From: Escherichia coli
GTDB taxonomy: Bacteria > Pseudomonadota > Gammaproteobacteria > Enterobacterales > Enterobacteriaceae
DNA: 64,000 nucleotides
Direction: 5' to 3' (one strand)
NCBI RefSeq assembly: GCF_003790525.1
Contig: NZ_CP033635.1
Positions 46,740 through 50,849 of this stretch are shown piece by piece; position 1 is the first letter of the stretch; the number at the start of each line of letters is the position of its first letter. The notes beneath the pieces are model-generated. The model did not search any database and was not told where the DNA came from. It saw nothing but the letters and a program-made list of their open reading frames with translations. A program made the translations under genes and the position numbers.

Positions 46740-49700
46740 TTGAGCCAGGAATACACTGAAGACAAAGAAGTCACATTGACAAAGTTAAGTAGCGGCCGCC
46801 GCCTTCTGGAGGCGTTGCTGATCCTTATTGTCCTGTTTGCCGTCTGGTTGATGGCTGCCTTACTAAGCTTTAACCCTTCGGACCCCAGCTGGTCGCAAAC
46901 GGCCTGGCATGAACCTATCCATAATTTAGGTGGGATGCCCGGTGCATGGCTGGCAGATACGCTGTTCTTTATTTTTGGAGTGATGGCTTACACCATTCCC
47001 GTCATTATTGTCGGCGGTTGTTGGTTTGCCTGGCGTCATCAGTCCAGCGACGAATACATTGATTATTTTGCCGTTTCGCTACGCATCATTGGCGTTTTGG
47101 CGCTCATCCTTACCTCCTGTGGTCTGGCGGCAATCAACGCTGACGATATCTGGTATTTTGCCTCCGGTGGCGTCATTGGCAGCTTACTGAGCACTACGCT
47201 ACAACCACTGCTACACAGTAGCGGGGGAACTATTGCACTGCTCTGCGTTTGGGCAGCGGGCCTGACGCTGTTCACCGGTTGGTCATGGGTGACCATTGCT
47301 GAAAAACTCGGCGGCTGGATTTTAAATATTCTTACCTTCGCCAGTAATCGTACCCGTCGCGATGATACCTGGGTCGATGAAGATGAGTATGAAGACGACG
47401 AAGAATATGAAGAAGATGAAAGTCACGGCAAACAGCATGAATCACGCCGTGCCCGTATTCTTCGCGGCGCGCTAGCGCGTCGTAAACGGTTGGCGGAAAA
47501 ATTCATTAATCCGATGGGGCGGCAAACAGACGCTGCGTTGTTCTCCGGTAAGCGGATGGATGATGACGAAGAGATTACCTACACTGCACGCGGTGTGGCT
47601 GCCGACCCTGACGACGTCCTCTTTTCGGGCAATCGTGCAACGCAGCCAGAATATGACGAGTACGATCCATTATTAAACGGTGCGCCAATTACCGAACCTG
47701 TTGCTGTAGCAGCTGCTGCTACCACGGCGACACAAAGCTGGGCTGCGCCGGTTGAACCTGTGACTCAGACGCCGCCTGTTGCCTCTGTTGATGTTCCACC
47801 TGCACAACCTACAGTAGCCTGGCAGCCTGTACCGGGGCCACAAACGGGAGAGCCGGTTATTGCTCCTGCACCGGAAGGTTACCCACAGCAGCCACAATAT
47901 GCGCAGCCTGCAGTGCAATATAATGAGCCGCTGCAACAACCAGTACAGCCACAGCAGCCGTATTATGCACCTGCAGCTGAACAATCTGCGCAACAACCTT
48001 ACTACGCTCCTGCGCCGGAACAGTCTGCGCAACAGCCGTATTACGCCCCTGCGCCAGAACAATCGGTGGCAGGTAACGCCTGGCAAGCCGAAGAGCAGCA
48101 ATCCACTTTTGCTCCACAGTCTACATACCAGACGGAGCAAACTTATCAGCAGCCAGCCGCTCAGGAGCCGTTGTACCAACAGCCGCAACCCGTTGAACAG
48201 CAGCCTGTTGTGGAGCCTGAACCCGTTGTAGAAGAGACAAAACCCGCGCGTCCGCCGCTTTACTATTTTGAAGAAGTGGAAGAGAAGCGTGCCCGTGAAC
48301 GTGAACAACTTGCGGCCTGGTATCAACCGATTCCAGAACCTGTTAAAGAACCAGAACCGATCAAATCTTCGCTAAAAGCACCTTCTGTTGCAGCAGTACC
48401 TCCAGTGGAAGCCGCTGCCGCCGTTTCTCCGCTGGCATCTGGCGTGAAAAAAGCGACACTGGCGACGGGGGCTGCCGCAACCGTTGCCGCGCCAGTCTTC
48501 AGTCTGGCAAATAGCGGTGGACCGCGTCCACAGGTCAAAGAGGGGATTGGCCCCCAGTTGCCACGACCGAAACGCATCCGCGTGCCAACTCGTCGTGAAC
48601 TGGCGTCTTACGGTATTAAGCTGCCCTCACAGCGTGCGGCAGAAGAAAAAGCCCGTGAAGCCCAGCGCAATCAGTATGATTCTGGCGATCAGTATAACGA
48701 TGATGAAATCGATGCGATGCAGCAGGATGAACTGGCGCGTCAATTCGCCCAGACACAGCAGCAACGCTACGGCGAACAGTATCAACATGATGTGCCCGTG
48801 AACGCAGAAGATGCAGATGCTGCGGCAGAGGCTGAACTGGCTCGTCAGTTTGCTCAAACTCAACAACAACGTTATTCCGGCGAACAACCGGCTGGGGCGA
48901 ATCCGTTCACTCTGGATGATTTTGAATTTTCGCCAATGAAAGCGTTGCTGGATGATGGTCCACACGAACCGCTGTTTACGCCAATTGTTGAACCTGTACA
49001 GCAGCCGCAACAACCGATTGCACCGCAGCAACAGTATCAGCAGCCGCAGCAACCAGTTGCGCCGCAGCCGCAGTATCAGCAGCCGCAACAGCCGGTTGCA
49101 CCGCAGCAGCAATATCAGCAGCCGCAACAGCCGGTTGCACCACAGCCGCAATATCAGCAGCCGCAACAGCCAGTTGCGCCGCAGCCGCAGTATCAGCAGC
49201 CACAACAACCGGTTGCGCCGCAGCAGCAATATCAGCAGCCACAACAGCCAGTTGCGCCGCAGCCGCAGTATCAGCAGCCACAACAGCCAGTTGCGCCACA
49301 GCCGCAGGATACCCTGCTTCATCCGCTGTTGATGCGTAATGGCGACAGCCGTCCGTTGCATAAACCGACGACGCCGCTGCCTTCTCTGGATTTGTTGACG
49401 CCGCCGCCGAGCGAAGTGGAGCCGGTAGATACCTTTGCGCTTGAACAAATGGCGCGTCTGGTGGAAGCGCGTCTGGCTGATTTCCGTATTAAAGCCGATG
49501 TCGTCAATTACTCTCCGGGGCCAGTTATCACTCGCTTTGAACTTAACCTGGCACCTGGCGTAAAAGCGGCGCGCATTTCTAACTTGTCACGGGACCTTGC
49601 CCGTTCACTTTCGACGGTGGCGGTGCGTGTCGTTGAAGTTATTCCTGGCAAACCCTATGTAGGTCTGGAGTTACCGAATAAAAAACGACAAACCGTTTAT

Positions 49701-50849
49701 CTGCGCGAAGTTTTGGATAACGCCAAATTCCGCGATAATCCGTCGCCATTAACCGTGGTGCTGGGTAAAGATATCGCCGGTGAGCCGGTGGTTGCCGATC
49801 TGGCAAAAATGCCGCACTTGTTGGTTGCGGGGACTACCGGTTCCGGTAAGTCTGTCGGGGTGAACGCGATGATCCTGAGCATGCTTTATAAAGCACAGCC
49901 AGAAGATGTGCGTTTCATCATGATCGACCCGAAAATGCTGGAGCTTTCGGTTTATGAAGGCATTCCGCATCTGTTAACGGAAGTTGTTACTGATATGAAA
50001 GATGCCGCCAACGCGCTGCGCTGGTGTGTTAACGAGATGGAGCGTCGTTATAAACTGATGTCTGCGCTGGGTGTGCGTAATCTGGCGGGTTATAACGAAA
50101 AAATTGCTGAAGCCGATCGCATGATGCGTCCGATTCCAGACCCGTACTGGAAGCCGGGTGACAGTATGGATGCCCAGCATCCGGTGCTGAAAAAAGAACC
50201 GTACATTGTGGTGTTGGTGGACGAATTTGCCGACCTGATGATGACGGTAGGTAAAAAAGTGGAAGAGCTTATAGCACGTCTGGCGCAAAAAGCCCGTGCC
50301 GCGGGTATCCACCTCGTACTGGCAACGCAGCGTCCATCGGTTGATGTTATTACTGGTCTGATTAAAGCGAATATTCCGACCCGTATCGCCTTTACCGTAT
50401 CCAGTAAGATTGACTCACGTACCATTCTTGATCAGGCTGGCGCGGAATCACTGCTGGGTATGGGGGATATGCTTTACTCTGGGCCGAACTCCACGTTGCC
50501 GGTACGTGTTCATGGTGCTTTTGTTCGCGATCAGGAAGTTCATGCCGTGGTGCAGGACTGGAAAGCGCGTGGTCGCCCACAGTATGTTGATGGCATCACC
50601 TCCGACAGTGAAAGCGAAGGTGGCGCGGGCGGTTTCGATGGCGCTGAAGAACTGGATCCGTTGTTCGATCAGGCGGTGCAGTTTGTCACTGAAAAACGCA
50701 AAGCATCAATTTCTGGCGTACAGCGTCAGTTCCGCATTGGTTATAACCGTGCAGCGCGTATTATCGAACAGATGGAAGCGCAGGGGATTGTCAGCGAACA
50801 GGGGCACAACGGTAATCGTGAAGTGCTGGCCCCACCGCCGTTTGACTAA
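46740..50849 (+). CDS. ftsK: DNA translocase FtsK
   Basis: N-terminal TM domain, long Pro/Gln-rich linker, C-terminal motor (GTTGSGKS) and gamma domain; apparent TTG start. Confidence 0.9.
48993..49308 (+). repeat. In-frame 39-bp tandem repeats in the ftsK linker
   Basis: About 8 tandem copies encoding PQQPVAPQ(Q/P)QYQQ. Confidence 0.7.

Follow-up and report, generated by a model that had tools for sequence, protein, structure and literature searches.

We analyzed a 64,000-nucleotide stretch of Escherichia coli DNA (the window), which is 100% identical to the genome of E. coli SMS-3-5 (NC_010498.1). The window contains a long open reading frame on the plus strand at positions 46740–50849, with a TTG start, 1369 aa and a stop codon in the ORF listing. 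In SMS-3-5, RefSeq annotates this frame as the 4110-bp ftsK gene (WP_000077118.1), encoding the DNA translocase FtsK. A Pfam search of the protein returned, each above its gathering score, FtsK_4TM (PF13491, 143.8 bits) at aa 20–191, FtsK_alpha (PF17854, 103.1 bits) at aa 880–980, the FtsK_SpoIIIE motor with its P-loop (PF01580, 293.9 bits) at aa 988–1201, and FtsK_gamma (PF09397, 98.0 bits) at aa 1304–1364; it gave no Pfam match for aa 192–879. The C-terminal 512 aa matched PDB 2IUS with E = 0, and this match and the Pfam hits together place the C-terminal motor (alpha, beta and gamma) at 49308–50846 on the plus strand. The gene order lrp-ftsK-lolA-rarA is present in the ORFs of the window and in the RefSeq annotations of both SMS-3-5 and K-12. 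By reading frame, Pfam architecture and RefSeq annotation, the frame is ftsK. With its 4TM, alpha, motor and gamma domains and the same gene context, its product is an FtsK/SpoIIIE translocase of the enterobacterial type.

Between the membrane domain and the motor, the gene carries a 39-bp in-frame tandem array at 48999–49307 (plus strand), delimited by Tandem Repeats Finder, unit decomposition and primer mapping. Tandem Repeats Finder reported a period of 39 bp, 7.9 copies, 89% matches, no indels and a score of 450; the same interval was also scored as a higher-order repeat of 2.6 copies with a 117-bp period. The array codes for aa 754–856, that is, seven full 13-aa units ending in [Q/P]QY followed by a last unit of 12 aa, and its peptide consists of 50% Q and 28% P, compared with 16% Q and 15% P for the linker as a whole. 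It is the last segment of the FtsK linker and lies directly before the motor: the first residue of the crystallised E. coli motor construct 2IUS corresponds to aa 858, two residues past the end of the array. The initial annotation of this DNA had described about eight tandem 13-aa units in the ftsK linker, and repeat finding, reading frame and Pfam layout all bear this out. The 13-aa unit given there is a circular permutation of the one defined here, and the interval it proposed (48993–49308) was about right, with the start off by 6 nt and the end by 1 nt.

The eight units of the SMS-3-5 array are all mutually distinct in DNA, and 7 of the 10 columns that vary among them are synonymous third positions. 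Between units, pS was ∼0.47 and pN ∼0.03 (pN/pS ∼0.06); K-12 and O157 gave the same figures. The peptide has thus been kept despite the divergence of the DNA, which argues that the units are old copies and not a fresh expansion. Judged from its sequence, the SMS-3-5 array is a set of old, diverged units with a conserved peptide and has undergone no recent expansion. An antisense ORF that covers the array (48627–49448, 273 aa, Leu/Arg-rich) was rejected as a gene candidate: it is the mirror of the CAG/CCG-rich repeat, with no evidence of gene status.

The array corresponds to a typing locus that has been described under two names. In the generic E. coli MLVA scheme of Lindstedt et al. (2007), CVN001 is a 39-bp repeat with a 250-bp offset, amplified with primers AACCGGCTGGGGCGAATCC and GGCGGCGGTGTCAGCAAATC (PMC8143711), and it is used in the GECM-7 and GECM-10 versions of that scheme. 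The Shigella/E. coli scheme of Gorge et al. (2008) has its own primers for a locus labeled “ms07(CVN001)” (PMC4644529). Both published primer pairs mapped uniquely to the flanks of the array. The CVN001 forward primer matched exactly at 48886–48904 on the plus strand (0 matches expected by chance), and the reverse primer site lies at 49389–49408 on the minus strand. The predicted amplicon of 523 bp corresponds to allele (523−250)/39 = 7. For ms07, the forward and reverse primers fall at 48739–48758 and 49384–49403, and the predicted amplicon (48739–49403, plus strand, 665 bp) corresponds to allele (665−353)/39 = 8. SMS-3-5 differs from the published primers by two internal mismatches in each reverse primer and one mismatch in the ms07 forward primer. 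The array and CVN001/ms07 share locus, 39-bp unit, integer alleles and a matching allele spectrum, and nothing of substance sets them apart: the array is the known VNTR locus CVN001/ms07. The suggestion that its length might serve as a strain marker was right, but the marker is already in use, since the published primers flank this very array. Both the array and its use as a marker are already known and have been part of routine typing since 2007–2008.

We determined array lengths in E. coli with a query in which the 400 bp to the left of the array were joined to the 400 bp to the right, with the repeats removed. This construct was compared by BLAST with 5,426 complete E. coli genomes, and the span of the joined-flank match was taken as the array length. 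It replaced a direct megablast search with the array and short flanks, which gave ambiguous spans and left the repeat alignments unjoined for about half of the genomes. A clean span was obtained for 59 of 60 systematically sampled records. Among these 59, arrays of 231 bp (6 units, 24 records) and 270 bp (7 units, 23 records) were the most frequent, followed by 309 bp (8 units, 6 records), 348 bp (9 units, 2 records) and 426 bp (11 units, 1 record); the remaining three records had irregular arrays of the B2 type (246, 246 and 222 bp). This spectrum closely mirrors the published CVN001 frequencies, in which one unit fewer is counted (5 units, 40%; 6, 40%; 7, 13%; 8, 5%; 4, 1%; PMC5217547). Comparison across strains, which had been proposed as a check, thus shows a variable copy number: besides the irregular alleles, regular arrays of 6, 7, 8, 9 and 11 units occur (n = 59). 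Eight units is an ordinary minority allele, present in ∼10% of the E. coli sample.

The repeat number itself could have been an artefact, a mis-expanded repeat in the assembly of this genome: at 309 bp, the array exceeds the typical short-read length. In one sampled RefSeq “complete” genome, that of CRE10 (NZ_CP034404.1), the array is garbled: ftsK is annotated as a frameshifted pseudogene, the left flank recurs in degenerate form within the array region, and 1-bp indels are scattered there in the manner of sequencing errors. Such a combination marks a faulty consensus or assembly and not biology; CRE10 carries the only frameshifted copy among the alleles examined. The CVN001/ms07 array can thus be mis-assembled. 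For the window, an artefact is contradicted by several observations. The 60 best matches among the 5,426 genomes had flanks 100% identical to those of the window, and the array measured exactly 309 bp in all 60 of these independent complete assemblies. A 601-bp stretch spanning the array matched 76 records with at least 99% identity. The reading frame is intact, and because all eight units differ in DNA, the array can be ordered unambiguously. The repeat number for which confirmation had been advised therefore stands, and an assembly artefact is effectively refuted for this genome. The warning of an assembly hazard is plausible in general, as the garbled CRE10 array illustrates, but does not apply here.

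The 60 genomes with identical flanks came from humans, poultry, cattle, pets and water in several countries. Their uniform array length indicates that the 8-unit allele is characteristic of the lineage and stable within it.

To describe how the alleles differ, we split into their units ten E. coli alleles built regularly of 39-bp repeats, together with two irregular alleles of the B2 type and a garbled copy. Sequence bore out the variation in copy number for the ten regular alleles, which contained 39 distinct unit types. Some bear traces of internal duplication: the 11-unit allele of E66 contains an exact internal repeat of 227 bp, corresponding to a duplication of five units, and the 9-unit allele of MB49 contains an exact repeat of 92 bp, corresponding to a duplication of two units. 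The B2 strains EcN and 85.0412 carry truncated 15-bp units encoding QQPQY, so that array length in these strains is not a multiple of 39 bp. Overall, alleles differ by whole-unit indels, by multi-unit indels (78 bp, 195 bp) and occasionally by intra-unit indels (24 bp). All natural alleles examined (231, 246, 222, 270, 309, 348 and 426 bp) are in frame, and since a unit is 13 codons, the frame survives whenever whole units are added or removed. A phase-variable contingency locus was rejected on these grounds.

Four 8-unit alleles compared with one another had almost no unit types in common and differed by 23–34 mismatches per 309 bp. The scarcity of common unit types indicates that equal length arose on different backbones, that is, by size homoplasy. 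Length-based MLVA at CVN001/ms07 is subject to this homoplasy, and amplicon length conceals much sequence diversity.

These differences also bear on how SMS-3-5 came by its allele. E. coli core genes undergo recombination, and the 8-unit allele might have been imported whole from another E. coli lineage by homologous recombination instead of arising by slippage in situ; the many substitutions that separate alleles of different lineages, seen both in the mismatch counts and in the number of unit types, would fit such an import. The unit strings point the other way. The SMS-3-5 array reads A B C D E F G H, and that of E686, the nearest sampled 6-unit allele (flanks 98.3% identical), reads A B C F e f, in which the last two units are 2 bases and 1 base away from D and E. 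Because the first three units and F are common to both, the length change must lie in the interior of the array, and the near-matches to D and E fit a local rearrangement on a common backbone. No donor allele was found among the alleles examined. We consider import very improbable. A single duplication separating the 8-unit allele of SMS-3-5 from the 6-unit allele of E686 could not be reconstructed from the unit strings. Whether the allele was imported or not concerns its history only and leaves the nature of the array unaffected.

We compared the window protein with FtsK of K-12. The ftsK gene of MG1655 is 3990 bp long and encodes 1329 aa, exactly the length that the initial annotation had given for K-12. 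A pairwise alignment over their whole length showed only 3 indels and 8 substitutions between the two proteins, and the window protein was longer by 40 aa. The excess that had been attributed to the eight units is thus real, but the array supplies only 26 of the 40 residues, with 8 units versus 6 in K-12; the repeat count does differ from that of the reference. A second 39-bp array farther upstream supplies 13 residues (3 units versus 2 in K-12), and an acidic D/E tract (47376–47423, plus strand) supplies the last one, a Glu codon more than K-12 at aa 224. Three in-frame length polymorphisms, each independent of the others, add up to the 40-aa excess (+26, +13 and +1).

The upstream array lies at 47958–48064 on the plus strand (aa 407–441; Tandem Repeats Finder, 2.7 copies; K-12 alignment) and is the VNTR ms06 of the Gorge et al. 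scheme. The ms06 primers matched exactly at 47842–47861 and 48162–48181, and the resulting 340-bp amplicon corresponds to allele 3. Among 60 sampled genomes, this array had 2 units in 18, 3 units in 17 and 4 units in 23. Like CVN001/ms07, ms06 is an in-frame 39-bp minisatellite of the same linker, polymorphic and established as a typing marker. It differs in that its unit peptide (PYYAPAxEQSAQQ) is unrelated and its copies are fewer (2–4).

The linker of the window protein is the same domain of the same protein as K-12 FtsK-L, a P/Q-rich segment of about 650 aa, and the CVN001/ms07 array forms its end. K-12 carries the shortest common alleles, with 6 units in this array and 2 in the upstream one, and its linker is 40 aa shorter because both arrays are at that minimum. 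The array had been called expanded, which holds only relative to K-12; K-12, however, has the shortest common allele, and 8 units fall within the sampled range of 6–11. The annotated FtsK lengths that we encountered ran from 1329 to 1407 aa. The 1329-aa FtsK of K-12 is therefore at the low end of the natural range, and exceeding its length is the norm, not unusual.

We also searched a single genome of each species for the degenerate unit with the beginning of another unit behind it. In S. enterica subsp. arizonae, E. whittamii, a divergent Escherichia and several Citrobacter genomes, an array of 4–9 units lies at the same place, flanked by ...HEPLFTP... on one side and ...L(L/I)... on the other. 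The 39-bp array in Salmonella ftsK has been described as the VNTR STTR7/SENTR2 (“39 bp, ftsK”; PMC2430564). It is orthologous to the E. coli array: the gene, the 39-bp period, the 13-aa unit and the position before the motor are the same, and it is polymorphic among isolates. The differences are the species, a reference copy number of 9.3 in S. Enteritidis and a diverged flanking linker. A Salmonella Enteritidis strain has an 84-bp deletion in the ftsK linker that affects 2 of 9 repeats, and a reciprocal swap of this indel between two Salmonella Enteritidis strains left survival in egg white, the one assay reported, unchanged (PMC6137255).

In the literature, FtsK-L is described as an unstructured, P/Q-rich tether of ∼650 aa that connects a septal membrane anchor to a hexameric DNA pump (PMC5357621, PMC5345879, PMC3870252), and its length differs between species (PMC5357621, PMC5345879). 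The FtsK motor is active in vitro without the linker (PMC5345879). The array segment resembles this class of disordered P/Q-rich linkers in being of low complexity, rich in Q and P and devoid of a recognised domain. An AlphaFold2 model of aa 721–1021 had a mean pLDDT of 36.9, a value that was obtained with a shallow alignment of 7 sequences and that must be read knowing that the alpha domain, which is folded in 2IUS, also scored below 50. The fact that solved constructs begin past the array, and the descriptions of the linker in the literature, lend indirect support to a lack of stable structure. The linker as a whole is not dispensable, since its complete deletion causes additional, dimer-independent filamentation, as stated in a passage of PMC2680272 that cites Bigot (2004).

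Taken together, these results suggest that the array, which occupies the end of the P/Q-rich linker just before the FtsK motor, is an in-frame minisatellite whose length polymorphism is tolerated; SMS-3-5 carries its 8-unit allele. We assign this reading a probability of roughly 0.88. Slippage during replication, or unequal recombination from one 13-codon unit to another, would produce the whole-unit indels; the exact duplications of several units in E66 and MB49 speak for such an origin. The two extra units would lengthen a tether of ∼690 aa by 26 aa (about 4%). Such a change in tether length is probably tolerated and near-neutral, given that healthy natural isolates carry 6–11 regular units or irregular B2 alleles and that relatives carry 4–9. 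In the literature, we found no comparison of unit numbers in E. coli for fitness or for chromosome dimer resolution. As a long-established marker and a common minority variant, the polymorphism matters little beyond bookkeeping.

The unit peptide is strongly conserved within arrays and across genera, which a spacer defined by length only would not obviously require. A purely flexible tether does not explain this conservation, and the motif may have a sequence-specific role. The 13-aa unit could be a functional multivalent motif whose number of copies would adjust how FtsK works, or the reach and timing of its motor; alleles particular to a lineage would then be adaptive, not neutral. It may, for example, be a binding site for a divisome partner, or act as a Tyr “sticker” within a Q/P “spacer”, promoting self-association at the septum. 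We regard such a motif as unlikely. It would account for the preservation of the peptide against near-saturated synonymous divergence, for the retention of motif and array position in Escherichia, Salmonella and Citrobacter, and for the perfect stability of the allele in the SMS-3-5 lineage (60/60 among the best matches, those with identical flanks). Parts of the linker are moreover reported to contact FtsQ, FtsL, FtsI and FtsZ, according to the portion of PMC5357621 that summarises Dubarry (2010). However, neither the spread of E. coli alleles, regular and irregular, nor the 4–9 units of the relatives reveals a single optimum, and equal length arises on unrelated unit strings. The Salmonella allele swap had no phenotype in its one assay (PMC6137255), and motor activity in vitro does not depend on the linker. 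The most specific form of this idea, in which the unit would be a partner-binding or self-associating “sticker-spacer” motif beside the motor and a lineage-stable copy number would tune the engagement of the pump with the chromosome at the closing septum, seems to us, if anything, a little more doubtful still. The low pN/pS may only reflect selection for a soluble, non-aggregating Q/P composition.

The ftsK linker array at window 48999-49307 is one of four 8-unit alleles in our set, the others (L016, L017 and L018) having been extracted from other E. coli genomes. The four occur in different flank backgrounds and differ from one another at 15-34 of 309 bases. They have almost no DNA unit types in common; across 10 alleles, we counted 39 distinct unit types. 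Thus, equal amplicon length masks unrelated alleles (size homoplasy). The B2-type alleles L004 (EcN_Sk) and L005 (85.0412) carry truncated units of 15 bp (QQPQY), corresponding to a 24-bp internal deletion. Because of these truncated units, the arrays measure 246 bp in L004 and 222 bp in L005, neither a multiple of 39, and MLVA calls would come out non-integer.

One copy was aberrant. The ftsK gene of E. coli CRE10 (L007, NZ_CP034404.1), a RefSeq "complete genome", is annotated as a frameshifted pseudogene. In its array region (about 2860-3330 of L007), the left flank is copied again in degenerate form and several 1-bp indels are present. The pattern suggests that assembly or consensus calling went wrong at this repeat. 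In searches of 5,426 complete E. coli genomes with ftsK flanks, 8 of the matching places were on plasmid-labelled records, and one genome gave no match.

A Leu/Arg-rich antisense ORF of 273 aa (window 48627-49448, minus strand) spans the whole array. This ORF mirrors the CAG/CCG repeat on the opposite strand, and there is no sign of its being a gene.

The linker contains a second 39-bp in-frame tandem array, at window 47958-48064 (unit PYYAPAxEQSAQQ, 2.7 copies), which is MLVA locus ms06. It has 3 units, versus 2 in K-12, and is itself polymorphic: among 60 sampled genomes, 18 carried 2 units, 17 carried 3 and 23 carried 4. Immediately upstream of the 48999-49307 array, a 14-aa peptide is present twice (window 48729-48770 and 48834-48875, spacing 105 bp). 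Since the DNA of the two copies has diverged at synonymous sites, the pair points to an old internal duplication in the linker. The segment carrying the duplicated peptide is conserved in Salmonella and Citrobacter too. Finally, the acidic D/E tract of ftsK (window 47376-47423) differs from K-12 by a 3-bp indel, giving an extra Glu224; within this tract, Tandem Repeats Finder reported a weak 9-bp periodicity at window 47389-47420.
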